Below are positions 720 through 37,426 of a stretch of DNA of 56,916 nt, piece by piece. The position numbers and the translations under genes are program-made. Origin of the DNA: a virus; IMG/VR virus record IMGVR_UViG_3300006226_000001, positions 1 through 56,916 of that record; one strand, written 5' to 3'. Position 1 is the stretch's first letter. Every line of letters starts with the position of its first letter. The notes beneath the pieces are model-generated. The model was not told the origin of the DNA. It did no database searches and was given only the letters and a program-made list of their open reading frames with translations.

Positions 720-1729
720 TTTGTCTCTCTCCTTTCTTTTAGAATTTGATAACATAACGCAACAATTAATTTGCTCTTTTCTCTAATTGTTGTTTCAATT
801 TCTTTTTGTTTTTCTAAATCGAAACTGTTTAATACAGGTATGATGTGTTCACCAGCCGAAGTAGCTGGGATATCAAGCATTCCCATTAATTTGTCTGTCA
901 TTTCTGGGAGGTTTAATCTTGAAACCCTATTTATGCGATATAGGAAAAATCCGTCCCAAAATTCTTTACCTCGCTCTCTGCGATATTGTGAGTGCTGTGC
1001 CAGTAGGGACAAATACTCAGCCGCTTCTTTGTCGATATTCTCTATCATCTCTATTACCTCTCTTTTTATAATTTCTTTTTTTTCTTTTGATGGAACTATT
1101 TTTACAAGTAGTTCCACTAAACCTGTGGGTCGATGAGGTTGCAGGATATTGTTTATTTGTTCTAAAAATACCCCACCAACTTTTTCATAAGTAGCCGGGT
1201 GATAATGCCCTGCCTCAATTTCTCGACTTGAAACTCCGTGTGATTTCATAGTTTCAATAGCATTTAATATCTGTGTATGCTCTTTGGGAACAAACTCAAC
1301 CATCTTGTCATCAGTCCCAATTAAAATCCGTTCCCTATTTGATAGCCCCGCGTGTAACCAGTGGTGTTTTTTAAATGAATATGCTATGCTGATAACAAAC
1401 TCTTTTGGTGGGTTTCTTAATTTGTCTAATACTTCCTGCCTTTCTATTACTTCCACATTACCCGGTGATTTGCAAATAATTGTCTTGAATCTCAGCTCTC
1501 GTTTTTCTAATAATTCTTGACAATATTTGCAAATCAAATCACCGGGAAATAACATAAATGCGTTTATTGTAGTGAAACTACTTTTTAACACTTTACTTGT
1601 TTTTTGGGGGTCTATCTGGGGACCACCGCAAGAGCAACATAGGGTGTGAATATCCATAAAAAACTCTGTGGTTTCTTCTCGATGTCCATGTAAAAATTGC
1701 CTTGCCATCCCTTTTAGGTGTGAACTCAT
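716..1729 (-). CDS. csf1: Csf1-like zinc-finger large subunit (type IV Cas8-like) with a long helical C-terminal extension, possibly a fused Cas11
   Basis: ORF track 716..1744. The preferred ATG at 1729 forms an ATGA overlap with the ligase stop (1726..1728). Cys pairs CCSCGG...ICKYCQ near the N-terminus. Sits directly upstream of the Cas7/Cas5-like genes, and its stop overlaps the next start (ATGA at 716..719). Confidence 0.55.
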   Translation of the reverse strand: MSSHLKGMARQFLHGHREETTEFFMDIHTLCCSCGGPQIDPQKTSKVLKSSFTTINAFMLFPGDLICKYCQELLEKRELRFKTIICKSPGNVEVIERQEVLDKLRNPPKEFVISIAYSFKKHHWLHAGLSNRERILIGTDDKMVEFVPKEHTQILNAIETMKSHGVSSREIEAGHYHPATYEKVGGVFLEQINNILQPHRPTGLVELLVKIVPSKEKKEIIKREVIEMIENIDKEAAEYLSLLAQHSQYRRERGKEFWDGFFLYRINRVSRLNLPEMTDKLMGMLDIPATSAGEHIIPVLNSFDLEKQKEIETTIREKSKLIVALCYQILKERRETK

Positions 1730-2493
1730 AAATCCCCCACCCATCTTGTTCCCAGAAACACTGGGTGCCTTGGTTTTCCATTATTTCCGAGTCCAAGATA
1801 TTTGTATACTGCTACATATCCGTTCCTAAAAAATGCTGTTACATCGTAGAAATCCTCTCTCATCTCTGCTGTGAACCCAGAACTTAGGTTGAACTCAACG
1901 CCTGTGTGAATATCTTTTACTACCAAGTGTTTCATTATATTATTTCGGCATTTAGCACAGATAACCTCCGCCTCACTCTCCAAATATCTTTTCATTTTTA
2001 ATAGCTCTGTCGACCTGCCCTGCGTGTAGAGGCTATCGGGGTATCGTATCATAACTCCCTCGTAGCCTTTGTCCAGAGTGTCCTGTTCGTATCTCAGTAG
2101 GTCTTTTTTTGACACTATTTCAGTCTGTGTGATGGGGAAAAAGTCTGCTGTAATAGCCGAGCATCTGTGGAAATAATACCACTGCTCGAAACCTATATTT
2201 CTGTCCCATCTATCGAAAAATACGAATTTGATATTGTCGATAGGTTTTGTGGGGGATAACACAATTGATGTAGTCTTTGAAAAATCCCCGCCATCATAAA
2301 ATAATTCGCCATCAAAACCGTGATTATTGCCATATTTGGCTTGTATCAATTGGTTCGGTATCGGTTTACCCGACCTGCTATAAACCACTCCGTCTTTGAT
2401 GTATGCTCTAATTCCGTCAATTTTTGGTGATGCATAGACGGGGAATTTTACCCCGTCTATGTCCTTTAAATCTGTCGCTAACATTACTTGCAT
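1726..2493 (-). CDS. ATP-dependent DNA ligase (small phage type)
   Basis: Motif I SPKIDGIR (KxDG), motif III FDGELF, motif IV EGVMIR, motif V LLKMK. Start moved to ATG 2493 (RBS AAGGGAG), downstream of the previous stop at 2504. Confidence 0.9.
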   Translation of the reverse strand: MQVMLATDLKDIDGVKFPVYASPKIDGIRAYIKDGVVYSRSGKPIPNQLIQAKYGNNHGFDGELFYDGGDFSKTTSIVLSPTKPIDNIKFVFFDRWDRNIGFEQWYYFHRCSAITADFFPITQTEIVSKKDLLRYEQDTLDKGYEGVMIRYPDSLYTQGRSTELLKMKRYLESEAEVICAKCRNNIMKHLVVKDIHTGVEFNLSSGFTAEMREDFYDVTAFFRNGYVAVYKYLGLGNNGKPRHPVFLGTRWVGDL

Positions 2494-2503
2494 TTTGACT
2501 CCC

Positions 2504-2800
2504 TTATTGATTTTTTCGACTTGGTATGTCACTATACCCTATAATGTAATTTGGGTGCGGATGGTTGTCATTTAGATAAGTGTAAAGATGAACATCACTT
2601 GGGATGCCAAGAAATTCACTTATTTTGTCCTCCTCTCTCCTTTGCCCTGCATAATAGATGGCTTGATTTGCCTCGATTAGCTTTGCCAATAACACCGTAG
2701 ATAATCTATCGATAACACCCTCTGGTATTGCCTTGATAATCTCTTCGGGGTATTTTTTATACCCCGTCATCGCTAATGCTCGTCTGATTTTTGTTTTCAT
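2504..2800 (-). CDS. Hypothetical protein
   Basis: ORF track 2504..2845. Start set to ATG 2800, preceded by AAAGGAGACGCA and clear of the upstream stop at 2812. Confidence 0.6.
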   Translation of the reverse strand: MKTKIRRALAMTGYKKYPEEIIKAIPEGVIDRLSTVLLAKLIEANQAIYYAGQRREEDKISEFLGIPSDVHLYTYLNDNHPHPNYIIGYSDIPSRKNQ

Positions 2801-2811
2801 TGCGTCTCCTT

Positions 2812-3360
2812 TTAATACAGCTGCCCGTAGATTATTATGTTCCAATTGCCTTTTATTTTGATGCCATCGATTATTTCTTTGGAATGTAGAAATTCCTCAA
2901 CCAGTTTATCTGGGACGATATGCCTCTGCCATCCACGGTGGGTTTCAAACCAAACCCAATATTTTTGTGTGACCGTGTTTTGATATAACCTTGCAACTCC
3001 AACTTCTGCATTTGGATTGCAATCGATTTCTATTGAAAAATTTTTATCCATCGTTTTCCATTTAGGATCCCTTATGATTTCAATCTGTGCGTTAACGCGG
3101 TCGTGTTCCATCTGTAATCTTGATTTTTCTCTACTGGTTGTGTAGCTGATTAGGGGCCAGCTTTCAAGATTATATTTACCATTTTTTGGGGTTCCGTCTT
3201 TATTGATTTTGATTAGTCTATACCAGTTTCCCCCCCAACCTTCATCGCCTGGCGTGTGTTTTACTTTGTGCAATCCGTTGCTGTTTTTGAAATATCCACC
3301 AGAGATAATAACAATATCCCCATTATTGATTTCAATTCCGTTTTTGTCTTTCAGTCTCAT
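2812..3360 (-). CDS. Hypothetical protein (182 aa)
   Basis: ORF track. RBS GAGGGAGG upstream; ATGA overlap with the stop of 3357..3632. Confidence 0.7.
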   Translation of the reverse strand: MRLKDKNGIEINNGDIVIISGGYFKNSNGLHKVKHTPGDEGWGGNWYRLIKINKDGTPKNGKYNLESWPLISYTTSREKSRLQMEHDRVNAQIEIIRDPKWKTMDKNFSIEIDCNPNAEVGVARLYQNTVTQKYWVWFETHRGWQRHIVPDKLVEEFLHSKEIIDGIKIKGNWNIIIYGQLY

Positions 3361-3632
3361 TGCGCCTCCCTCAGTAGTATCAGCTCTTCACAATAGCTGA
3401 TTGCGTCATCCAGTATGTTACAAGTGAAGTAGATTTTTTCCGACTCAAGTGTCCTGACCTTAATTTCGTCTTCATTGCAGTGGATGGCAAGCGGATGCCT
3501 CTTGTCGTTTGCATAAAATGTCAGGGAATTTCTAATCTCTGTGGATATGAACGCAGTGTCCATACCCATTACTTCCAGCCTTTCTATCTGTTTTTTTGAT
3601 AGAAATTTTAGTTCTCTTAGTTTCAGTTTCAT
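3357..3632 (-). CDS. Hypothetical protein
   Basis: ORF track 3357..3677. Start set to the ATG inside the conserved GGAGGACACAATG cassette (3632). Confidence 0.6.
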   Translation of the reverse strand: MKLKLRELKFLSKKQIERLEVMGMDTAFISTEIRNSLTFYANDKRHPLAIHCNEDEIKVRTLESEKIYFTCNILDDAISYCEELILLREAQ

Positions 3633-3646
3633 TGTGTCCTCCAATG

Positions 3647-3666
3647 GGGGCGGTTTAAACCGCCCC
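3647..3666 (-). repeat. Intercistronic GC hairpin GGGGCGG-TTTAAA-CCGCCCC, followed by the RBS/start cassette
   Basis: Perfect 7-bp arms. The upstream gene's stop is in the loop. GGAGGACACAATG lies immediately 3' on the minus strand. Confidence 0.85.
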
Positions 3667-4014
3667 TTGATTTTCATTTTTTTTCATAATATCAAGTATT
3701 TCTATATATTCATTTATTCTGTCTTGATACCATTTTTTTTTTCGTATCATTTCAACTTTGGCAGGCTTTCCTTCTCCATCGATTGCTTTCAAACTCTGAA
3801 CCAATTCCATAGCACGTTCTTCTGTCCACAGCGTTGGGAAATATTTGTTTTCAAGTTCAACTATGTTGGTTTTATCGTCCGCTCCGACTGTGTATGCTCC
3901 GCAGGTTACAATCCAGTGGTATGGTTCTAATATTTGTACGCATGGATAAGCCTCTTTATAATACTCTTTTATCAGCCACAGTGCTCTTTCTTTAAATTCT
4001 TTTATGTCTTCCAT
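3655..4014 (-). CDS. Hypothetical protein (119 aa)
   Basis: ORF track. Cassette GGAGGACGCAATG at the start; stop codon lies in the loop of hairpin 3647..3666. Confidence 0.65.
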   Translation of the reverse strand: MEDIKEFKERALWLIKEYYKEAYPCVQILEPYHWIVTCGAYTVGADDKTNIVELENKYFPTLWTEERAMELVQSLKAIDGEGKPAKVEMIRKKKWYQDRINEYIEILDIMKKNENQGAV

Positions 4015-4025
4015 TGCGTCCTCCT

Positions 4026-4044
4026 GGCGGGCTATAAGCCCGCC
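4026..4044 (-). repeat. Intercistronic GC hairpin GGCGGGC-TATAA-GCCCGCC plus RBS cassette
   Basis: Perfect 7-bp arms; stop codon in the loop; GGAGGACGCAATG follows. Confidence 0.85.
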
Positions 4045-4334
4045 TCGTCCTTTTTGAAGTTTTCCTCGATATACTTGAAAGTATGAATTATTTCCTTTTG
4101 ATAACCTTTATATATACCGTTTAGAAAGTTGATTGCCTTTTTGATTGTCCTTCTGAACTCGTCTATCTGTTCTATTTCGGGATCCTCAAGCAACCTTTGG
4201 ATTGTTCCGATTTCATGATGCAAGTTTTCTAATTTTTCTGTGAGGTTGCCTACCTTAATTGTTTCGGTTTCTAATACCAGCAGGCTTGAGAGTAACTCGT
4301 TTATGCTTAATGTTTCGTGTTGTCTTTTTTCCAT
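4032..4334 (-). CDS. Hypothetical protein (100 aa), C-terminus ...EAGL
   Basis: ORF track. Cassette start; stop TAG lies in the loop of hairpin 4026..4044. Confidence 0.65.
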   Translation of the reverse strand: MEKRQHETLSINELLSSLLVLETETIKVGNLTEKLENLHHEIGTIQRLLEDPEIEQIDEFRRTIKKAINFLNGIYKGYQKEIIHTFKYIEENFKKDEAGL

Positions 4335-4347
4335 TGTGTCCTCCAGG

Positions 4348-4366
4348 GGCGGGCTATAAGCCCGCC
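4348..4366 (-). repeat. Intercistronic GC hairpin GGCGGGC-TATAA-GCCCGCC plus RBS cassette
   Basis: Same sequence as the 4026..4044 hairpin; GGAGGACACAATG follows. Confidence 0.85.
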
Positions 4367-4755
4367 TCTGATTTTATTGTTTTTGACATATCATAGAATA
4401 TTTTTTTTGTTCTTTTGATAGTCTTGCATGGTCTTTTTTTGCCTGTTTTGTATTCTGATTTTTTGGCTAATCTTAGGTATTCGATTCCATCGTAACTCAT
4501 AAATGAGAGCTTGCCTTTACGAATGCACAAAGGACTTGAGCTGTGTCCATACCCACCATACTTATCTGCTATTATTGGCTCTCCCCATCGTGTTTCGGTT
4601 GCTATAAATCCTTTGGGTAATACAAACCATCGTCCACCGTCATCGGTGGCGTATGCGCTTTTCAATCCCCCTCTGGGTAATAAACTATAATAACTGCGTC
4701 CACTTTCGTAATAGTAGACATAGTAAACTTTGATTATGTTGTTTGGTCTTGCCAT
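4354..4755 (-). CDS. Hypothetical protein, C-terminus ...EAGL
   Basis: ORF track 4354..4767. Start set to the cassette ATG 4755 (MARPNNII...); stop lies in hairpin 4348..4366. Confidence 0.65.
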   Translation of the reverse strand: MARPNNIIKVYYVYYYESGRSYYSLLPRGGLKSAYATDDGGRWFVLPKGFIATETRWGEPIIADKYGGYGHSSSPLCIRKGKLSFMSYDGIEYLRLAKKSEYKTGKKRPCKTIKRTKKIFYDMSKTIKSEAGL

Positions 4756-4768
4756 TGTGTCCTCCAAT

Positions 4769-4790
4769 GGGCGGGGTTATAACCCCGCCC
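4769..4790 (-). repeat. Intercistronic GC palindrome GGGCGGGGTTATAACCCCGCCC plus RBS cassette
   Basis: 22-nt perfect palindrome; stop codon at its centre; TTGGAGGACACAATG follows. Confidence 0.85.
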
Positions 4791-5055
4791 ATTCTGTTAC
4801 AAATTGATGATAATTTTCATCAATCCAAATATTGATGGTTGTGTTACCTATATTAATTTCAAGTCTGGTTCCTAGGTCGCTTATCCAGCAATCTGGATTT
4901 AGCTTATAGTGTCTGTATACATTATATCCAGCACCTGCGCTTTTAGTTTCGTCTTTTTCGTAATCTGTAGGGAATATCTTGTCTGCCATTCCCCAAGCCA
5001 TATTTTTATTAAATGCTTTCTTGTGGATACTCTTTACCCAATCTGTTGCTTCCAT
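4777..5055 (-). CDS. Hypothetical protein, C-terminus ...WAGL
   Basis: ORF track 4777..5067. Start set to the cassette ATG 5055; stop lies in hairpin 4769..4790. Confidence 0.65.
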   Translation of the reverse strand: MEATDWVKSIHKKAFNKNMAWGMADKIFPTDYEKDETKSAGAGYNVYRHYKLNPDCWISDLGTRLEINIGNTTINIWIDENYHQFVTEWAGL

Positions 5056-5069
5056 TGTGTCCTCCAATG

Positions 5070-5089
5070 GGCGGGGTTATAACCCCGCC
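5070..5089 (-). repeat. Intercistronic GC palindrome GGCGGGGTTATAACCCCGCC plus RBS cassette
   Basis: Near-identical to 4769..4790; the same flanking cassette follows. Confidence 0.85.
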
Positions 5090-5349
5090 TCTTCTTTATA
5101 TTTTTTAATAGTTTCTTTTATTGAATTACACTTTGTGTAATTATCGTCTCTGTCCATATATCCATATTCTAAATCGCAAGTTCTTAGGTAATTACTGGTA
5201 TAGAATATAAATATATGATGGTCGCCATTACTAAAATGTGCCGCGTCATAATCACTGCTACAGTGTTCAAAGCCATTTGTTTTTAGTTCAACTTCAGCCT
5301 GATTGTAAAGCTGCTGGACTCTATCTGAATATTCGTCTAAGTGTTTCAT
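5077..5349 (-). CDS. Hypothetical protein, C-terminus ...EAGL
   Basis: ORF track 5077..5418. Start set to ATG 5349, preceded by CCAGGAGGACGAA; stop lies in hairpin 5070..5089. Confidence 0.6.
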   Translation of the reverse strand: MKHLDEYSDRVQQLYNQAEVELKTNGFEHCSSDYDAAHFSNGDHHIFIFYTSNYLRTCDLEYGYMDRDDNYTKCNSIKETIKKYKEEAGL

Positions 5350-5363
5350 TTCGTCCTCCTGGG

Positions 5364-5380
5364 GCGGGCTATAAGCCCGC
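5364..5380 (-). repeat. Intercistronic GC hairpin GCGGGC-TATAA-GCCCGC plus RBS
   Basis: 6-bp arms; stop of 5369..5743 in the loop; CCAGGAGGACGAAATG follows. Confidence 0.8.
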
Positions 5381-5743
5381 TCCTTTATTTCTTTTGATTT
5401 CAGGAATCTGTTTTTCAATCAAACTAAATATGGCATCTCTTGACTGTTGTCTAATTTCTTTGTCATTTGCCCAGTTTATTCTCTGTCTGTTTTTAACCTT
5501 TTTGATTGTGTCATTTAGTCCTTTCATATGTGACTGGAATATTTTCATTTTGGCTTTATCCCAGGTCTTGTAGTATTCTATGTTATCCATTATATACTTC
5601 TTTCTTTTTTTCAGGTGGATGAGCATTTCATCGACTTCGTGGTGTAACCAGATGCCACTGAAATTTCTATTTAGATTTTCAAATTCTGCGTCAATTTCTA
5701 TGGCTCTTTCAAATAATTTTTTTTCGTAGTTTAAATCTTTCAT
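5369..5743 (-). CDS. Hypothetical protein (124 aa), C-terminus ...GAGL
   Basis: ORF track. Cassette GGAGGACGCAATG at the start; stop lies in hairpin 5364..5380. Confidence 0.65.
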   Translation of the reverse strand: MKDLNYEKKLFERAIEIDAEFENLNRNFSGIWLHHEVDEMLIHLKKRKKYIMDNIEYYKTWDKAKMKIFQSHMKGLNDTIKKVKNRQRINWANDKEIRQQSRDAIFSLIEKQIPEIKRNKGAGL

Positions 5744-5754
5744 TGCGTCCTCCT

Positions 5755-5773
5755 GGCGGGCTATAAGCCCGCC
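5755..5773 (-). repeat. Intercistronic GC hairpin GGCGGGC-TATAA-GCCCGCC plus RBS cassette
   Basis: Identical to the 4026..4044 hairpin; the stop of the 58-aa ORF is in the loop. Confidence 0.85.
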
Positions 5774-5937
5774 GTTTCCTTTTGGTTAAGTTCCAAGTAG
5801 TGCCAGTAGAGTTTTGAGTTTAAGTAACGCAATCTGTCGGTTGCTTTGTTTAATTTTGAGTAGCCTTTCATTATGACTGCCACTCTGTTTAGTGTGCTAA
5901 ATCCTGCGTATATTAACGCTTTTTTAAATCGTTCCAT
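5761..5937 (-). CDS. Hypothetical small protein (58 aa), below the ORF-track cutoff, C-terminus ...TAGL
   Basis: Manual translation from cassette ATG 5937 gives MERFKKALIYAGFSTLNRVAVIMKGYSKLNKATDRLRYLNSKLYWHYLELNQKETAGL. Stop TAG at 5761..5763 lies in hairpin 5755..5773. Confidence 0.5.
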   Translation of the reverse strand: MERFKKALIYAGFSTLNRVAVIMKGYSKLNKATDRLRYLNSKLYWHYLELNQKETAGL

Positions 5938-16029: not shown

Positions 16030-16431
16030 ATGTCAAGACAATTAGGTATAAACACAATAGGCGAGCATAAATTTGACGAGATATTTGCGGGAGATTTCCC
16101 GCGTGTAAGCTGTGAAGTAATATCAACGGATGCCACAATGGACCTTGGCAAGGGTGCAATACTGCGACTAACATATCAGGGCAGTTCCAGATATAGTGGA
16201 GTAATGGCAACGATGACAGAATTAGGTTCACCAGGTAACAATGTATTTGCAGTATTGGGTGAGCCATTAGAACAAGGCGAGGTGGGAGTCGCATATTTGA
16301 CAGGTGAATTTATAGGTGATAGAATGCTGATTTCAAATGGAAGCGGTGGCTTGGCGACAAACTGGGAAACCGTTAGGCACAATTTATTTAGTCGCAGTAT
16401 CTTTTTGAGAGAAGCGGTATTACCATCATAG
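16030..16431 (+). CDS. Head decoration protein (gpD-like)
   Basis: 133 aa lying between protease and major capsid; GEVGVAYLTGEFIGDRM motif; strong RBS AGGAGG. Confidence 0.7.
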   Translation: MSRQLGINTIGEHKFDEIFAGDFPRVSCEVISTDATMDLGKGAILRLTYQGSSRYSGVMATMTELGSPGNNVFAVLGEPLEQGEVGVAYLTGEFIGDRMLISNGSGGLATNWETVRHNLFSRSIFLREAVLPS

Positions 16432-27484: not shown

Positions 27485-28185
27485 TAGAAAATTTGCAAGG
27501 CATAGCGATGACAGGTTTTCAAAATGCAAAGGACACCTTGGCAGGTGGATTTGACGGATGGCGTGATGGCTTTTTGGATAATATTCAGGACATAGCGATT
27601 GCGAGATTATTGTCATTTACTCCGTTTGTTGGTTTTATTGGAAATGTGATTTTTATGACGAGCCGATTTAGAGTGCGGACATTTGAAAATTTAAATCGTA
27701 GATTGGATGGTCATTATCATGAGCATAATGTTATCCATGGCAAGCCTGTCCCTGAGTTTTTGGGTGTCGGTCTGAAAGAATATAATTTTGATATTACATT
27801 AAATAGTTTTTGTGGACCAGAGCCTTTGACAGATTTTCGGAGGCTTGAAAAGTTTGTCGAAGAGGGTATTCCTCAGGTGGTATTTCTGCACGGTCGCAAT
27901 GAGGGTCTGTATTCAGTCCGAAGTATTGAGGCGGATGAGACATACTGGTATAAGGGTCGACCTGCTGTGATGACGGTAAATATAGTTTTGAGAGAATATG
28001 TAGAAAGTATCCCAATAGCGGTTCAAGAGAAATTGCGAGAGGAAGAGCTGGCAAGAGGTGATACAGGTGTCGGTGGTCCAGACAAGGTAGCGGGACACGC
28101 CAAGTTACCAGAAGAGGTTGCAGAGGCACCGAGGGTATTAACTCCGAGCATTGACCCGGTAACCAGGATGGTAATAAATGGATAG
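27481..28185 (+). CDS. Tail protein, P2 gpU-like
   Basis: HGKPVPEFLGVGLKEYNFDITLN...PLTDFRRLEKFVEEGIPQVVFLHGRNEGLYSVRSIE pattern. Confidence 0.6.
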   Translation: MIENLQGIAMTGFQNAKDTLAGGFDGWRDGFLDNIQDIAIARLLSFTPFVGFIGNVIFMTSRFRVRTFENLNRRLDGHYHEHNVIHGKPVPEFLGVGLKEYNFDITLNSFCGPEPLTDFRRLEKFVEEGIPQVVFLHGRNEGLYSVRSIEADETYWYKGRPAVMTVNIVLREYVESIPIAVQEKLREEELARGDTGVGGPDKVAGHAKLPEEVAEAPRVLTPSIDPVTRMVING

Positions 28186-28510
28186 AATATTTGATGTATT
28201 AGGAACGCCTTTGACAGATATAGAAATCGGTGCTGTGGGCATCCGTAGTATTTTGCAAAATGTCAAAACGATTATTTCTACATGGCGTGGGAATGTGTTT
28301 TTTGACAGACTTTTTGGCATAAATACACGGATGATAGATGCCCCATTAAATATTTTGTATGCAAATCTGTCTGTAGATATTACAGAACAGCTGGCAAAGT
28401 ATGAGCCGAGAGTAGAGGTGGTGAGTGTAAGTTTTGAGGATAGCGATATTCCCAATGGTGTTGTAATTCCATTGGTGCGGGTGCGTATAAGAGATGGAGT
28501 TTTATTATGA
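28178..28510 (+). CDS. Baseplate wedge protein, GPW/gp25 family
   Basis: 110 aa; IRSILQNVKTIISTWRGNVFFDRLFGI motif. Confidence 0.8.
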   Translation: MDRIFDVLGTPLTDIEIGAVGIRSILQNVKTIISTWRGNVFFDRLFGINTRMIDAPLNILYANLSVDITEQLAKYEPRVEVVSVSFEDSDIPNGVVIPLVRVRIRDGVLL

Positions 28511-29442
28511 AGACATTTAAAGTAGAGACGGTAGGGAAATATGAGCCTGTAGATATATTTGCAGGTAGATTGCAGAGAGTAACCAAAGAAGTCATATCAG
28601 GAATGGATTTACCAAAGGGTAGTGTTTTGAAGTGCCTTTCTGATGATGGTCGTAAATTTTTGGTCGAGCTGTATAATAATTATGATGATGGTGTTTTTGG
28701 TGTTTTGGCAGAGGATATGAAAGCAGGTGAGCCTGGAGTGGCTTATGTTTCAGGTGAGTTTTTGGGAAATTCTGTAGTAGTATCATATGGGATTGATATA
28801 AACCTACTTTCAAGAAAAGATTTGATATTTATAAGAAATTATGGAGAGGATGGACATTTTCGACTGCCGAGGGTGTCTGTATCGATTGTGGGTCGTGGTA
28901 TGGTCCAGGGAGCTGGATTTTATGAAATAGGTGAGGCGGTGAATTTACGAGCTGAAGCTTGGAGTGGCTATAAGTTTGAAAGATTTGAAAATATAAATAC
29001 AGGAGAGGTAAGTGAAATGAGTAATTATACTTTTACAATGCCAGACGCTGATGTAAATGTGAGAGCGTTTTTCAGAGCGATGGTGGATAATGTAATTTTG
29101 ACTTATGAGGGTATGGGGTCGGTATCAGGTCAGGGTGAATATGATACTGGCGCACAGGTTACAATCAATGCAGTAGCAGCATTTGGCTATCGATTTGTTC
29201 GTTGGGAAAACGCAGACACAGGAGCTGAGTTTGCTACATCCGCAATTCATACTTTTACAAAACAGGCTGGAACGATTAATCTGCGAGCTATTTTTGAAGT
29301 GATAATGCGTAATGTAACAGTAACAGTTGAGGGTCAGGGAACTGTAACAGGCGCAGGTCCTTATGCAGTGGGTGCGACAGTCGAGCTTGAGGCAACCCCA
29401 GATGATGGGCATGTCTTTGTGAGATGGGAAGACGATTTGTAA
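28507..29442 (+). CDS. Baseplate-module protein: an N-terminal paralogue of the head-decoration domain plus InlB-type B-repeat domains. The last repeat is truncated by the stop
   Basis: N-terminus aligns by eye with 16030..16431 (DIFAG..RV..EVIS, GEPGVAYVSGEFLGN versus GEVGVAYLTGEFIGD). Repeats contain YKFERFEN...NVRAFF, YRFVRWEN...NLRAIF and HVFVRWEDDL-stop. Confidence 0.7.
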   Translation: MKTFKVETVGKYEPVDIFAGRLQRVTKEVISGMDLPKGSVLKCLSDDGRKFLVELYNNYDDGVFGVLAEDMKAGEPGVAYVSGEFLGNSVVVSYGIDINLLSRKDLIFIRNYGEDGHFRLPRVSVSIVGRGMVQGAGFYEIGEAVNLRAEAWSGYKFERFENINTGEVSEMSNYTFTMPDADVNVRAFFRAMVDNVILTYEGMGSVSGQGEYDTGAQVTINAVAAFGYRFVRWENADTGAEFATSAIHTFTKQAGTINLRAIFEVIMRNVTVTVEGQGTVTGAGPYAVGATVELEATPDDGHVFVRWEDDL

Positions 29443-29455
29443 TTAAGACGAAAAC

Positions 29456-29484
29456 CACCCCCCCCGATATAGTTCGGGGGGGTG
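29456..29484. repeat. GC hairpin CACCCCCCC(C)G-ATATAGTT-CGGGGGGGTG in the 53-nt gap between two halves of a repeat domain
   Basis: C8 tract 29458..29465 faces G7 tract 29476..29482. No T-run follows. Confidence 0.8.
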
Positions 29485-29495
29485 AGAGGTAAAGA

Positions 29496-29783
29496 ATGAG
29501 TAAATTGACATTTGAGATGCCAGGTCGGGATGTGAATGTAAAGGCTGTGTTTGCATATGCAGACAAGCGTATTGTGTTTCATCTGACAGATAGAAAATAT
29601 CAAGATGCCTTGAATTCTATGCTTGAGAGTTGGTTTCAGTGCAATGGAGTTGGCAAGTATTTTGATGGCTCTGAGGTCGATTTTAATCAGAACGACCAGC
29701 CATTGTGGGGCGATGTATTTTATGTTACAGTTTATAATAAAGGTGAGCAGATTTATTATAAAGAGATGACAATAGAGGTTTAA
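29496..29783 (+). CDS. Small protein whose N-terminus is the missing second half of the truncated B-repeat
   Basis: MSKLTFEMPGRDVNVKAVF matches MSNYTFTMPDADVNVRAFF of the upstream ORF. Has its own RBS-like GAGAGG. Confidence 0.6.
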   Translation: MSKLTFEMPGRDVNVKAVFAYADKRIVFHLTDRKYQDALNSMLESWFQCNGVGKYFDGSEVDFNQNDQPLWGDVFYVTVYNKGEQIYYKEMTIEV

Positions 29784-29784
29784 G

Positions 29785-31329
29785 ATGAATGATATTTATA
29801 TAGAATTAGATTTGGATTTAGAGTCGTTAGTAGACGACAGCCCAGTGATAACAGAATTTGACCCTTATGATGGCATAATCTATGGTCGTAATTTTAAGAA
29901 CGGATATTACATAGAAACAGGCGAAGTTTTGCTATTTAACCGACATACAAACAGCTATGAATATTGCGGTTATGATAGCTGGTCTGATACAGAAATTCAT
30001 ATAGGGGAATATTGGCATGATGGTAGAGATGGCGACTCTGCGATAAAGGTAGTAACCAAAGTGGGTCACCGTCAAGAGAGCAAAGGCTATAGTGTAAAAT
30101 ATCCGAACTCCTTTCCATATTATTGTCGGATTACCTATCGAGATGTGAGCGACAATTCAATCAGACAAGCTTATATAGAAGAAAGAACATACGAAAACAT
30201 TATCGAAGCTAACAACCATTATGGGGTGATTCGTTCTCATGGTCAGGATGTGTATCTTTTGTCTCAGATGCTTGGCATAGAATTTGGAGATCAGTTTGAA
30301 AAGGACAGAATTTCATCAGGTTTTTTAGATTCTTGTCTTTTATTTAATCAACCTTTGAGAATGCCTGATTCAGTCGAATACATAGAGAGTTATTTTCTTT
30401 TCTACTGCTTTTCCTTTGACCAACCAATTTATTTTCCAGAGGGGCTAGAGGAGATTGGAGGCTATTTTATGGGAGCTTGTTATTCTTTTAATCACCCTTT
30501 GACATTTCCGTATTATTTAAATCATATTGGATATTTAATGCTTGCCGATTGTTCTGCTTTTAATAGCGATATCGAATTTGGTCAATACCTTGAAACTATT
30601 GGTTTTGGTTTTATGGCAGGTTGTTTCTCTTTTAATAAAAACATGAGCCTTCCAGATTATATTTATTCAATAGAATCAAGTTTTATGTCGGGCTGCAGTA
30701 GTTTTAATAGCCCTTTGCGGTTACCTGAAGGGATTTACTCGATAGACGATAATTTTCTTTACAGTTGCTGTTCTTTTAATCAACGGCTTGTTATCTCGGA
30801 GTATGTGGGCTATATTGGAAGTTATTTTATGCAGGATTGTCATGCATTTAATAAACCGTTAGAATTGCCTAATAATGTTACAGAAATAACTGATGGATTT
30901 ATGTGTAACTGCTATAGTTTTAATAGCAGATTGAAACTTCCCGACTATCTTTGGCGGATAGGATATAGTTTTTTTGAAAACTGCTATGCCTATAATCAGG
31001 AATTAAATTTACCTTATAGCCTAAATGAAATTTGGGACTATTTTATGAATAGTTGTTATTCATATAGTCATCGATTGGTATTGCCTGGTAGTATGGGCTG
31101 GATTGGTGAATTTTTTATGTTTGAGTGTTATTTGTTTTTAGAGCTGGAGGTAGAGTCAACATTTACACCGCCTGGTGACCCTTATACACTTTCGACAGCT
31201 CGTGATAGTTTGGCGCCAGCCTATTTAATTGGCGTTCGGTTATATGGACCAGGTGCTCATATGTGGACTTATTATTTGAATAACCAGGGTGGATGGCTTT
31301 ACCGCAAATTGATACATATGGGGGACTAA
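29785..31329 (+). CDS. Leucine-rich repeat protein (BspA-type LRR), probable receptor-binding or adhesin component
   Basis: About 12 tandem units of about 23 aa of the type F(M/L)xxCxSFNxPLxLPxxhxxIgxxF. Confidence 0.8.
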   Translation: MNDIYIELDLDLESLVDDSPVITEFDPYDGIIYGRNFKNGYYIETGEVLLFNRHTNSYEYCGYDSWSDTEIHIGEYWHDGRDGDSAIKVVTKVGHRQESKGYSVKYPNSFPYYCRITYRDVSDNSIRQAYIEERTYENIIEANNHYGVIRSHGQDVYLLSQMLGIEFGDQFEKDRISSGFLDSCLLFNQPLRMPDSVEYIESYFLFYCFSFDQPIYFPEGLEEIGGYFMGACYSFNHPLTFPYYLNHIGYLMLADCSAFNSDIEFGQYLETIGFGFMAGCFSFNKNMSLPDYIYSIESSFMSGCSSFNSPLRLPEGIYSIDDNFLYSCCSFNQRLVISEYVGYIGSYFMQDCHAFNKPLELPNNVTEITDGFMCNCYSFNSRLKLPDYLWRIGYSFFENCYAYNQELNLPYSLNEIWDYFMNSCYSYSHRLVLPGSMGWIGEFFMFECYLFLELEVESTFTPPGDPYTLSTARDSLAPAYLIGVRLYGPGAHMWTYYLNNQGGWLYRKLIHMGD

Positions 31330-32532
31330 ATGGATTTTGAAAATTTAAGAGATGTAGTCTTTGCCGAGGTTGACACTGACAAGCTGATAAAGTCAGCAAT
31401 CAGTGTCTATGAGGGCATAATGAATACTACACTTTATGCAGGTAACCCTGTACGGTTATTTTTGATGGCTCTCTGCGTAATCAGAGGTCAGGACAATGCT
31501 ATTTTGGATTGGACTTCAAAACAGAATTTGTTAAAATATGCTGTGGGTAATTATCTTGAACATCTGGGTGCTTGGCTTGGTGTTTTTCGTCTGTCTCCCA
31601 CCCCAGCCAGATGCACCCTTATGTTTTCACTGCAACAGGTAAGAAATTTCCCAACTACAATTCCGATGGGAACAAGAGCGACAGCAGATGGCAAGGTGTT
31701 CTTTTCGACAGATGCTGTGCTTTTGATACCAGCGGGTGAGATTTCTGGTGAAGTATCTGCTACTTGTCTTTCGGAGGGTAGTGTAGGTAATGAACTAATG
31801 GCAGGACAGATAAATCGGATGGTCGACAGCGTGGCGTTTGTAAATGGTGTTGAAAATATCAACACAACTAATGGTGGAAGTGACATTGAAACGGACTCGG
31901 CTCTGAGGGCAAGAATAAGACTGAAACCCGACAGCTTTACAACAGCTGGAAGTCGGCTTGCATATCAATACTGGAGTTTTACCGCTCATGTGAATATCGG
32001 TGATGTGGCGGTGGTTTCCCCTATCCCTGGAATTGTAAATATATTTGTAATGCTGAGAGGTGGAGAGCAACCAGAGGTCGACTCTGCGGAGATAATGGCA
32101 GTGAAAGAGATATTTGGAGTTTCAGATATTTATGGTCATGTGAGCAGTGAGAGTGGGGATAGATTGCGACCATTGACGGACTTGATATTTGTATTTCCTA
32201 TCAATGTAGAGCCTGTAAATTATACAATAAAATGGTGGGTAACAGATGAGCAGGCGGTGGATTTGGTTTCAATAAAAGAAGCAGTCCATAATGCAGTGTC
32301 AGAGTATGAGGTTTGGCAGACAGAAAAGGCAGGTCGGGATATAGTTCCAGATAAACTAATAAAGCTGTGTTTGTCGGCAGGAGCCAAGAGAGTAGAATTG
32401 AAACGGATAATAATAATCGATGATGTCCCAGTAGAAATACCATTTGTTCACAGTGTGATTGGTGATACAACAGTGGTAAATTTTATCGAGAATGAGGATA
32501 GGATAATCGATGGAGGAGTTGAGAAAGAGTAA
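31330..32532 (+). CDS. Baseplate protein J (gpJ-like)
   Basis: GGSDIETDSALRARIRLKPDSFTTAGSRLAYQYWSFTAHVNIGDVAV motif. Confidence 0.85.
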   Translation: MDFENLRDVVFAEVDTDKLIKSAISVYEGIMNTTLYAGNPVRLFLMALCVIRGQDNAILDWTSKQNLLKYAVGNYLEHLGAWLGVFRLSPTPARCTLMFSLQQVRNFPTTIPMGTRATADGKVFFSTDAVLLIPAGEISGEVSATCLSEGSVGNELMAGQINRMVDSVAFVNGVENINTTNGGSDIETDSALRARIRLKPDSFTTAGSRLAYQYWSFTAHVNIGDVAVVSPIPGIVNIFVMLRGGEQPEVDSAEIMAVKEIFGVSDIYGHVSSESGDRLRPLTDLIFVFPINVEPVNYTIKWWVTDEQAVDLVSIKEAVHNAVSEYEVWQTEKAGRDIVPDKLIKLCLSAGAKRVELKRIIIIDDVPVEIPFVHSVIGDTTVVNFIENEDRIIDGGVEKE

Positions 32533-33466: not shown

Positions 33467-33637
33467 ATGGATAAACCAAAAATTGAGACAATTGCAAAGG
33501 GTGAAGTAATTACCAAAGCAGAGAAAAGAGAATATTTGCAGGGTATTTTAGAGATACAAAAGCAGATGGTAGAAAAATTGGAACAAGAGATTTCAGAGAT
33601 AGAAAAGGAGCTACAAGATGATACAGAGGAATTGTAG
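33467..33637 (+). CDS. Small coiled-coil protein (56 aa), below the ORF-track cutoff
   Basis: ATG 33467 after the strong RBS TAGGAGG. Translation: MDKPKIETIAKGEVITKAEKREYLQGILEIQKQMVEKLEQEISEIEKELQDDTEEL. Confidence 0.5.
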   Translation: MDKPKIETIAKGEVITKAEKREYLQGILEIQKQMVEKLEQEISEIEKELQDDTEEL

Positions 33638-35033
33638 TGAGTGCTGGTATTTTGAGGATTTGTTTTGCACGCTTTATGATTTTTTTGTGAGGGAAGATGC
33701 TGAGGCTTGCGATGACTTTGTAACAGAGGGAAAACAAGGTTTAAAGACAACATTGGATGTCGATTGCGATGAGTTTGTCGAGATAAAGTGCGATGCTTTT
33801 AATTTAAAACAGCCTCTAAATACTATCCATGTAGGATTTGTGAGGATGCTCGGAGTGGCTATTTGCGCTGGTCAGGCTGATATTTATCTTGTAAATAATG
33901 CAGTTCAGTCAAGCCTTATGAATTTTTATTTTGGAGTAAATTCACTTCATACATCATTGTCAGTCCATAATTTTATAATGAGCCAGAACGCATATAATGT
34001 AAATGAGATACAGACTAATACTTCATTATCATCAACTTTTTTTGTTAAATTAACTGGAACCAAGCAGTCTCATTATGATGTAGAAAATGACATATTGAGA
34101 GTATCAGAATATTGGATTAATTCTGCAAATGCTAATACGAATTTTCTCGTATTATATTTGTTAGGTCCCCACTGTGGAGCAGCGAATTCTATGTGGTGCG
34201 GATTGGCAGGTGAAACTTTAAATTCGTCAATTCCCCCATCAGCACAATTTGAAAATTCCTACACAATGCGAATTGATAAATATCATCAAAACTTGAAGCG
34301 TTGGTTGACATTATATTTAGGTGCAGAAAATACGATGTCTGATGGGAATACGAGCTTGCCTACAGTACCGGGTTGGAAATTGAAAAACGGAAATATAGCC
34401 AATGGTTCGATAACAAGATATAGGACATTGGACCCCCGACTGGTAATGGCAGGACAGCGGTTTATAGAAATCGGATATAGTGGACAGGCTATGAGCTATG
34501 ACGAAGAGGCTCTGATTGAACCTGCAACAAATACCGATTATGGACTTACAACGGTAAATTTGCTTGCCTTTAATACGGCTGAAAATTATTTTGATTTAGA
34601 AATTTCAGTTTTGGCTACCAACACATCGATTGAACCGCAGACATATCGGGAAATTGGAATTTTCCGACCATTTCCAACGACTGCAACTGCAATGGAAATG
34701 GGAATGAGCCACAGAGGAGTGTTTGAGACACCTGTAACGGTGCCAGGTGGAGAGAGTGGATTGTTTACCCAAGTTTTTAGAGTTTATATTCACCATAAGC
34801 CTGTTTATAGGGTATCTGTATTGACAAGTGATGATAGCAAAGTCGAAACCATTACAAACAGCGGGAACTATTTCGAGGAACAAGTAGTAACGGTAGAATG
34901 TAACCCACTTGCAGGGCAGACTGTTCAGAGTATGTCAATCGTTCCGTCTGTTCCGTTTGAGCAGGTCAATCAGAACACAATAAAATTTGTAATGCCGAGT
35001 TTTGATTTGGCGGTTCATATAGTTTTTAATTAG
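33618..35033 (+). CDS. Putative tail fibre / receptor-binding accessory protein with a C-terminal B-repeat domain
   Basis: 471 aa. RBS AAGGAG. C-terminal YRVSVLTSDD...VVTVECNPLAGQTV...IKFVMPSFDLAVHIVF resembles the repeats of 28507..29442. Confidence 0.6.
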   Translation: MIQRNCSECWYFEDLFCTLYDFFVREDAEACDDFVTEGKQGLKTTLDVDCDEFVEIKCDAFNLKQPLNTIHVGFVRMLGVAICAGQADIYLVNNAVQSSLMNFYFGVNSLHTSLSVHNFIMSQNAYNVNEIQTNTSLSSTFFVKLTGTKQSHYDVENDILRVSEYWINSANANTNFLVLYLLGPHCGAANSMWCGLAGETLNSSIPPSAQFENSYTMRIDKYHQNLKRWLTLYLGAENTMSDGNTSLPTVPGWKLKNGNIANGSITRYRTLDPRLVMAGQRFIEIGYSGQAMSYDEEALIEPATNTDYGLTTVNLLAFNTAENYFDLEISVLATNTSIEPQTYREIGIFRPFPTTATAMEMGMSHRGVFETPVTVPGGESGLFTQVFRVYIHHKPVYRVSVLTSDDSKVETITNSGNYFEEQVVTVECNPLAGQTVQSMSIVPSVPFEQVNQNTIKFVMPSFDLAVHIVFN

Positions 35034-36793: not shown

Positions 36794-36833
36794 ATGGGAA
36801 TCGTGTGATTTCCATTGCGTCCCACACAAAAAG

Positions 36834-36854
36834 CCCCGCCCTAATAGGGCGGGG
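36834..36854. repeat. GC hairpin CCCCGCCC-TAATA-GGGCGGGG, of the same family as the early-region hairpins. On the minus strand it is followed by CTTTTTGTGTGGGACGCAATGG
   Basis: Perfect 8-bp arms. The T-run is on the minus-strand side only. A degenerate copy of the RBS/start cassette lies at 36811..36821. Confidence 0.8.
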
Positions 36855-36880
36855 TGAGATTTGAATTAAGGAGAGGATAG

Positions 36881-37426
36881 ATGTTAGAAATAATATTAGC
36901 TTTTTTGGGTCCTGTATTGATAGCAGTAATAACAATATTTGGCAGAAAGTGGATAAACGACAACAATGCAATACTGAAAAAAGATTTGGAAGAGATAATG
37001 GAATTTATAGGTATCAATAGAAATAATAAGAGCATTATCAAACGATTGACAGACATAAAAAACTATTACACAGAGCAATTTAAGGACGAATTATGGAGAG
37101 AAATAGCATTGGAGCGAGCCTCGATGTTAATATCGTCTTTGCAGGCAATATTGAGTATATACGAGATTGAACTAAATAATTTAGCAGCAATCAAACTGAG
37201 TTTTGAGGCATCAAGGAACAGACTTGACGCAAGACTTATAGATTTGCTCGGAGAAGAAAACGCTGCTAAATTTAAAAAGGAGAGAGATAAAGAACATCGA
37301 GCCTTTGAGGATGTCATAGAAAACATACTTGCAAGGACAAAAAACCATTTTAAAGAGGATTTCGCAGAGGCATGTAGTACATATCTGAGACAGATATTAA
37401 AAACAATGTTGAAGCGACATCAATAA
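36881..37426 (+). CDS. Membrane-anchored hypothetical protein (possible lysis-cassette member)
   Basis: N-terminal hydrophobic helix ILAFLGPVLIAVITIFG; RBS AAGGAGAGG. Confidence 0.55.
   Translation: MLEIILAFLGPVLIAVITIFGRKWINDNNAILKKDLEEIMEFIGINRNNKSIIKRLTDIKNYYTEQFKDELWREIALERASMLISSLQAILSIYEIELNNLAAIKLSFEASRNRLDARLIDLLGEENAAKFKKERDKEHRAFEDVIENILARTKNHFKEDFAEACSTYLRQILKTMLKRHQ

Follow-up and report, generated by a model that had tools for sequence, protein, structure and literature searches.

How does a single small domain come to be encoded by two neighbouring open reading frames (ORFs), and is it ever made whole? The question is raised by the late operon of the virus in record IMGVR_UViG_3300006226_000001, whose entire stretch of 56,916 nucleotides (nt) is the window analysed here: a phage genome of 56.9 kb with a GC content of 38%, complete (rated 100%) and carrying direct terminal repeats. 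In this operon a gene for a B-repeat protein (ORF1) stops within its third repeat, and the short reading frame that follows (ORF2) opens with what looks like the remainder. A sequence-only reading of the locus had noticed this and had proposed either that ribosomes hop over the gap, as in gene 60 of phage T4, or that a small insertion had split a receptor-binding protein into two polypeptides that reassemble. The features on which the argument turns are the following.

28507–29442, plus strand: ORF1, 311 residues, comprising a decoration-like N-terminal domain (N-domain), B-repeats 1 and 2 and the first four strands of B-repeat 3; ends in TAA.
About 28507–28866, plus strand: N-domain of ORF1, head-decoration-like (phrog_49 match).
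About 28858–29082, plus strand: B-repeat 1 (PF18998).
About 29077–29304, plus strand: B-repeat 2 (PF18998).
29302–29439, plus strand: first four strands of B-repeat 3 (positions 7–47 of a hidden Markov model, HMM, of foreign repeats).
29437–29442, plus strand: last sense codon TTG and stop TAA, the proposed take-off site (read from the sequence).
29443–29495, plus strand: intercistronic spacer of 53 nt, with stops in all frames when the ORF1 stop is counted.
29456–29484, no strand assigned: GC hairpin with C8 and G7 arms and an AT-rich loop (from folding and a minus-strand terminator score).
29484–29489, plus strand: Shine–Dalgarno (SD) sequence GAGAGG, 6 nt 5′ of ATG 29496 and just 3′ of the stem.
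29496–29783, plus strand: ORF2, 95 residues, of which 1–19 are B-repeat strands 5 and 6 and 20–95 a small domain.
29505–29507, plus strand: first TTG after the stop, the proposed landing site, in the frame of ORF2.

B-repeat 3 is divided between ORF1 and ORF2. ORF1 ends ...HVFVRWEDDL, followed by TAA at 29440–29442, inside its third B-repeat and after strand 4. A six-frame translation of the genome, 2115 pieces in all, was scanned with an HMM made from 25 B-repeat units of unrelated proteins (P0002 and P0005–P0007) and holding no units of this phage. The last repeat of ORF1 matched model positions 7–47 only, and the first 20 residues of ORF2 matched positions 59–78, 72 nt downstream of the ORF1 match (full-sequence E 1.6e-5); the same scan recovered the two intact repeats of ORF1 and one further complete repeat in ORF 33618–35033. 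When 1.8 billion representative proteins were searched with phmmer, ORF2 residues 3–28 matched the ends of internal B-repeats, among them TFEMPGNDVTVKAVF in P0005, where 13 of 15 residues are identical. Both the foreign-repeat HMM and these repeat-end matches bear out the suggestion that the start of ORF2, MSKLTFEMPGRDVNVKAVF, is the missing last two strands of the repeat. Against the foreign HMM, both halves of the split repeat score as well as or better than the corresponding halves of the intact repeats:

N-terminal part: split repeat 3, 37.3 bits; repeat 2, 36.5 bits; repeat 1, 20.1 bits.
C-terminal part: split repeat 3, 24.9 bits; repeat 2, 7.8 bits; repeat 1, 22.8 bits.

The PF18998 profile, which describes a domain of ~73 residues, behaves in the same way: repeats 1 and 2 match it in full, and repeat 3 does so only when the end of ORF1 (HMM positions 7–47) and the start of ORF2 (positions 59–76 when the pieces were scored separately) are combined. 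The complementary HMM coverage and the match of ORF2 to repeat ends mean that the split is real and that the continuity is not due to chance.

The position of the break was mapped on an AlphaFold model of the intact repeat 1, calculated with a 17-row alignment of repeat units (predicted local distance difference test score, pLDDT, 97.9). The model has six strands (5–11, 14–17, 27–34, 38–45, 56–60 and 66–74), and the break falls in the 10-residue loop 46–55 between strands 4 and 5. Transferred to repeat 3, strands 1–4 stay in ORF1, and strands 5 and 6, including the longest strand, are found in ORF2. Superposition of the repeat 1 model on the InlB B-repeat (2y5p), a fold described as beta-grasp-like (PMC8900821), gave a Z score of 5.9 and a root-mean-square deviation of 3.3 over 66 residues at 20% identity. 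Immunoglobulin (Ig)-like, PKD and pilin domains equal or beat this match (Z 6–7), and no neighbour stands out. A single-sequence AlphaFold model of full-length ORF1 reached a pLDDT of only 28.6; a PDB sequence search returned no match and an ESM Atlas look-up of ORF2 nothing informative.

The downstream piece has initiation signals of its own. The SD sequence of ORF2 lies outside the hairpin stem, and its duplex with the anti-SD sequence (−11.3 kcal/mol) is the fourth strongest among 33 starts scored between 10 and 39 kb; ranked against the 718 ATGs between 10 and 39.5 kb, the pairing falls in the top 0.7%. At the other end, the ORF2 stop codon is separated by one base from the ATG of a gene for a leucine-rich repeat (LRR) protein (TAAGATG). 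A strong SD sequence, an ATG and such a tight junction to the next gene are the signature of a separately initiated cistron.

The gap between the two pieces had been described as closed in all three frames, which holds once the ORF1 stop is counted: TAA 29440 lies in frame 1 (that of ORF1), TAA 29444 in frame 2 and TAA 29490 in frame 0 (that of ORF2). ORF1 and ORF2 together already place eight residues (EDDL plus MSKL) after the conserved W and before the TF of strand 5, compared with 12–18 residues between the conserved W and F of natural repeats (n = 27 repeats). Only a few loop codons can therefore hide in the 56 nt of stop and spacer, and the remaining DNA, about 38–50 nt and 2 modulo 3, is extra to the repeat, with boundaries that are approximate. 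Excision of 38 nt (29443–29480), for example, gives WEDDL*GER*RMSKLTF, equal in length to repeat 1 (FENINTGEVSEMSNYTF). The DNA of repeat 1 carries the same GAGAGGTAA, followed by ATGAGTAA, a good internal SD sequence (−8.6), and on this ground the SD sequence and ATG of ORF2 may be recruited coding sequence. Within the intact repeat 1 itself, GGAGAGGTAAGTGAAATG (29002–29019) amounts to a good SD sequence and ATG, at −8.6 kcal/mol better than many real starts in this genome; an internal start at this site would yield MSNYTFTMP…, with the same two strands as the N-terminus of ORF2.

We consider it likely that one gene was split by the insertion of a stop and a hairpin into the surface loop of B-repeat 3, and that both parts are now translated separately. 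The ancestral gene would have encoded a baseplate-associated, adhesin-like protein in which a decoration-like anchor domain was followed by three B-repeats and then by a small C-terminal domain, and some 38–50 extra nt with a stop codon and a GC hairpin would have split it in the strand 4–5 loop of repeat 3. Ribosomes would terminate at TAA 29440, and translation of ORF2 would begin at ATG 29496 from its strong SD sequence, whether by de novo initiation or by re-initiation of the terminating ribosomes; the hairpin would probably act at the level of RNA and not in decoding. The two N-terminal strands of ORF2 could then complete the repeat 3 stub of ORF1 in trans, much as in donor-strand complementation, and the completed repeat would dock the small domain of ORF2 on the tip of the ORF1 stalk. 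Given fission and separate translation, we judge the case for such reassembly to be evenly balanced. Of the earlier proposal, a small insertion that split a receptor-binding-type protein fits all the evidence; we infer the reassembly of the two polypeptides from where the repeat is broken, from the consensus preserved in both halves and from the tight spacing of the operon. The whole sequence of events, fission by a small insertion, separate translation of two proteins and completion of the repeat in trans, is the best overall explanation, and we favour it with some reserve. More tentatively, the split may be functional design, a loop-broken B-repeat serving as a non-covalent plug and socket on the baseplate-anchored ORF1 stalk; if so, tip modules would be swappable by exchange of the downstream cassette, and the hairpin would set the ratio of the partners.

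Fission followed by reassembly has precedents in phages. In the so-called genes in pieces, small mobile insertions split a gene and the two polypeptides reassemble, as in the T4 topoisomerase (gp39/gp60) and the split nrdA of Aeromonas phage Aeh1. The locus described here is similar in that the break interrupts a conserved domain and leaves two pieces with separate translation signals, whose function presumably returns when they assemble non-covalently. It differs in that no homing endonuclease gene lies beside the break, the insert is only ~40–50 nt, the target is an accessory adhesin-type repeat and not an essential enzyme, and there are no relatives with the uninterrupted state. At the level of the protein, the closest parallels are donor-strand complementation and exchange in chaperone–usher pili and the split proteins of the beta-grasp class, of which split ubiquitin is an example. 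As in the donor-strand systems, ORF1 has an incomplete small beta domain that lacks its C-terminal strands, ORF2 carries these strands at its N-terminus as an extension, a surface loop is the site of the break, and Ig-like pilin domains are among the nearest folds. However, two strands would be donated here instead of one, there is no chaperone or usher, and the likeness is drawn from sequence and a single-domain model. If the pieces do reassemble, the locus would show that nature has turned a small adhesin repeat into a split domain by which host-recognition proteins of a phage dock, which is relevant to the swapping of receptor-binding modules by phages and to the engineering of modular tail tips. 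A Campylobacter-phage split topoisomerase gene that does not have a bypass cassette is described in the preprint by Manning and Atkins (bioRxiv 10.1101/2022.08.31.505936).

What, then, does the hairpin do? Its arms, CACCCCCCC(C)...GGGGGGGTG, span 29456–29484 with the C8 and G7 tracts, and its folding energy varies with the stretch folded, from −21.4 to −22.4 kcal/mol. The sequence-only reading had described it as having no U-tract, which holds for the plus strand; we add that the minus strand has one (GGTTTTCGTCTT). The hairpin scores as terminator-like on the minus strand, where the U-tract is a loose one (GTGGTTTTCG), and no minus-strand gene lies near it. There is no second copy of it in the genome, a pattern search did not find it in IMG/VR and Rfam gave no meaningful match; on these three counts we rejected it as a mobile element. 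The late operon has only two hairpins, this one and a sister after the tail-fibre gene:

36834–36854, no strand assigned: sister hairpin after the tail-fibre gene, with the C-arm first, an A-tract before it and GGGGTGAGA at its 3′ edge; minus-strand terminator-like.

Both have the same layout (A-tract, C-rich arm first, AT-rich loop, G-rich arm, then TGAGA), both are terminator-like on the minus strand only, and GGGGTGAGA is present nowhere else in the genome. From this shared sequence plan, the late hairpins are probably one small family of RNA-level elements rather than decoding signals; possible roles are to block antisense transcription, to stabilise or process the mRNA or, for the hairpin at the split, to set how much is made of each product relative to the other. 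Hairpins between cistrons and intrinsic terminators are familiar in phage operons, for example the T4 UUCG hairpins and the PeSL cassettes. Like these, the hairpin has a stem rich in GC although the genome is rich in AT, and it stands between two cistrons, immediately 5′ of a ribosome-binding site (RBS); unlike them, it has its C-arm first, a U-tract on the antisense strand only and a position inside a former coding repeat. Elsewhere in the genome, seven small early genes are set apart by a GC hairpin with an RBS directly after it. These seven intercistronic cassettes (3630–5790, minus strand) are nearly identical: the hairpin, GGCGGGC/GGGCGGGG … GCCCGCC/CCCCGCCC, runs directly into GGAGGAC(A/G)(C/A)AATG, and the loop contains the upstream stop or lies close to it. 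In the region of the sister hairpin (36812–36885), the upstream CATTGCGTCC is the reverse complement of the early RBS/start cassette.

The other half of the earlier proposal, a ribosomal hop, was weighed by the criteria of PMC5462505 and of the Manning and Atkins preprint (bioRxiv 10.1101/2022.08.31.505936). Peptidyl-tRNA-Leu would leave TTG 29437, the ribosome would slide 65 nt over the hairpin and land on TTG 29505, and a single fused protein with the junction …RWEDDL-TFEMPGR… (…WEDDLTFEMPGR) would result. The TTG of 29437–29439 does recur at 29505–29507, as had been noted, and this is the next TTG downstream and in the frame of ORF2; the take-off codon is followed directly by the stop TAA 29440, which is trivially true for any ORF end; and the gap, with a stable hairpin, the SD-like GAGAGG and AU-rich sequence 3′ of it, resembles the cassette of T4 gene 60, whose own gap is 50 nt long. 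However, TTG is common at 38% GC, and the frame, the sole constraint on the match, is met by chance in about 1 of 3 cases. The product would moreover keep only 5 residues between the conserved W and F, as against 12–18 in the 27 natural repeats, and would require a 10-position deletion relative to the HMM, which removes essentially the whole strand 4–5 loop of the model; skipping therefore does not restore the length of the domain. Gene 60 has a take-off stem-loop around its take-off codon. The codon here lies outside any hairpin: 29428–29456 folds at −0.6 kcal/mol, the GC stem begins 13 nt past the end of the stop codon (29443–29455), and the take-off/landing helix in the minimum-energy fold adds −3.3 kcal/mol, weaker than with shuffled flanks (mean −6.3). 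The SD sequence serves an ATG 6 nt away. For a mini-SD sequence 5–7 nt before the landing codon the spacing is equivocal: GAGAGG ends 15 nt 5′ of the landing TTG, and a GAG within ATGAGT lies 4 nt 5′ of it. The nascent peptide, whose last 30 residues are acidic and beta-rich, shows no likeness in sequence to the gene 60 signal, there is no MobA-like element, and an accessory protein such as this one need not be made in fused form. A bypass like that of gene 60 is thus disfavoured by the independent SD sequence and ATG of ORF2, the loss of the strand 4–5 loop and the missing take-off hairpin, and we regard it as very improbable. For those who search for bypass sites the locus is a clean counter-example: a hairpin and a stop beside matched codons do not suffice if the hop fails to restore the domain and the downstream piece has an RBS of its own. 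Two other routes to a fused product also fail. A −1 frameshift into frame 0 was ruled out, as TAA 29490 closes this frame 3 nt before the ATG, and phase variation in the C8 and G7 tracts, suggested earlier for the junction, was rejected as a means of joining the frames, because TAA 29440 lies upstream of both tracts and a change in their length cannot fuse the frames.

The main rival to reassembly is a dead relic: a recent insertion would have truncated the gene, the stub and the ORF2 strands would be relics that do not interact, and ORF2 would be idle or independent. This rests easily with a single genome and no relatives that show the arrangement maintained, and halves that still look like consensus are also expected soon after such an event. 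We nevertheless think it rather unlikely, in view of a strong SD sequence and an ATG exactly at the loop, an intact ORF2 that abuts the start of the LRR gene (TAAGATG), and two halves that come closer to the consensus than any other repeat piece of the protein; moreover, the frame-0 TAA 29490 implies some change since the split, if this stretch was once coding. In an exchange of cassettes, recombination would have brought the 3′ end of one B-repeat gene and the hairpin that terminates it beside the remnant of another, and the two halves would never have formed a single repeat. The interval between the gp25-like and gpJ-like genes is indeed hypervariable in relatives, and the sister hairpin marks the end of the tail-fibre gene. 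Yet the two ends complement each other, one breaking off three residues past HMM position 47 and the other setting in at ~55–59, a coincidence that we estimate at ~1 in 5–10 if the truncations were independent, which leaves such a swap improbable. An assembly or sequencing artefact in this metagenome-derived genome, finally, is hardly credible: homopolymers such as C8 and G7 are error-prone, but errors in tract length can produce neither 38–50 extra bases nor a stop in every frame, a related hairpin occurs elsewhere in the genome, and terminal repeats close the genome, whose completeness is rated at 100%.

Several observations weigh against fission followed by completion in trans. Because strand pairing is not readable from the model, we infer only from the loss of two of six strands, and by analogy with beta-grasp and Ig-like folds, that the ORF1 stub of repeat 3 cannot fold alone. 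The homology to the repeat before the ATG of ORF2 (frame-0 GGER*R) is not significant, its score being reached by 29 of 200 shuffles, and the GAGAGGTAA match to repeat 1 is marginal (35 of 2000 against the repeat 1 loop, 137 of 1000 against all repeats); the boundaries of the insert are approximate for these two reasons. No orthologue of ORF1, ORF2 or the LRR protein, fused or split, was found in the collections searched. In these searches, ORF1 (whole, and as residues 119–311) retrieved from 5.8 billion proteins itself and one B-repeat-only match; all matches in IMG/VR, in GenBank phages (at both DNA and protein level), in GTDB genomes and in JGI metagenomes were to B-repeats; among 1.8 billion representatives, ORF2 matched short internal stretches of repeats and, weakly, a repeated module, and nothing else; and IMG/VR returned no match to the LRR gene or to gpJ when each was used as a single query. 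With one uncultured phage genome, known from sequence alone and without relatives, the weight of the case is modest.

The genomic setting is that of a variable cassette. The split locus lies in the late operon between the gp25-like gene (28178–28510) and the gpJ-like gene (31330–32532), an interval that holds three extra genes, ORF1, ORF2 and the following:

29785–31329, plus strand: gene for a BspA-type LRR protein, starting 1 nt past the ORF2 stop, in the same variable cassette.

ORF1 combines an N-domain that matches head-decoration proteins with three stretches of Flg_new_2, a divergent InlB B-repeat (PF18998, E 9e-37 in Pfam). The N-domain (28507–28866) is a paralogue of the phage's own head-decoration protein (16030–16431), with 34% identity and an E value of 2e-18. 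The small domain of ORF2 (residues 20–95) is weakly like a repeated module of large surface proteins; within it, residues 42–89 weakly match a module present five times in P0004, an 878-residue protein with an fn3 domain (whole-library E 1.9e-6). Another complete B-repeat-like domain is found at the C-terminus of ORF 33618–35033 (34803–35027; HMM positions 5–75, E 4.7e-5), a protein of 471 residues with no Pfam or PHROG match.

An alignment of gpJ reached 80 related phage loci. The closest relative (locus L006, 75% gpJ identity) has a different cassette, and its contig ends 1.4 kb upstream; in place of the cassette it carries, at 1–1373, a protein of at least 384 residues made of ~44-residue repeats (…TTNNTFSEITGLP…) and a 57-residue ORF before gpJ. 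Decoration-like N-domains are joined to other C-terminal domains in the baseplate modules of two further loci, L017 (870–1403) and L012 (1739–2554); one of these genes precedes a collagen-like fibre gene and the other sits between gp25-like and gpJ-like genes. The differing genes of the relatives and the N-domain fusions identify the interval as a variable cassette for adhesin-like proteins anchored by the N-domain. The collagen-like (G-x-y) fibre gene of L017 spans 1408–3120 in the baseplate module, and in the same locus the 177-residue N-domain protein and a gpI-like protein share the same terminal module of ~65 residues at their ends.

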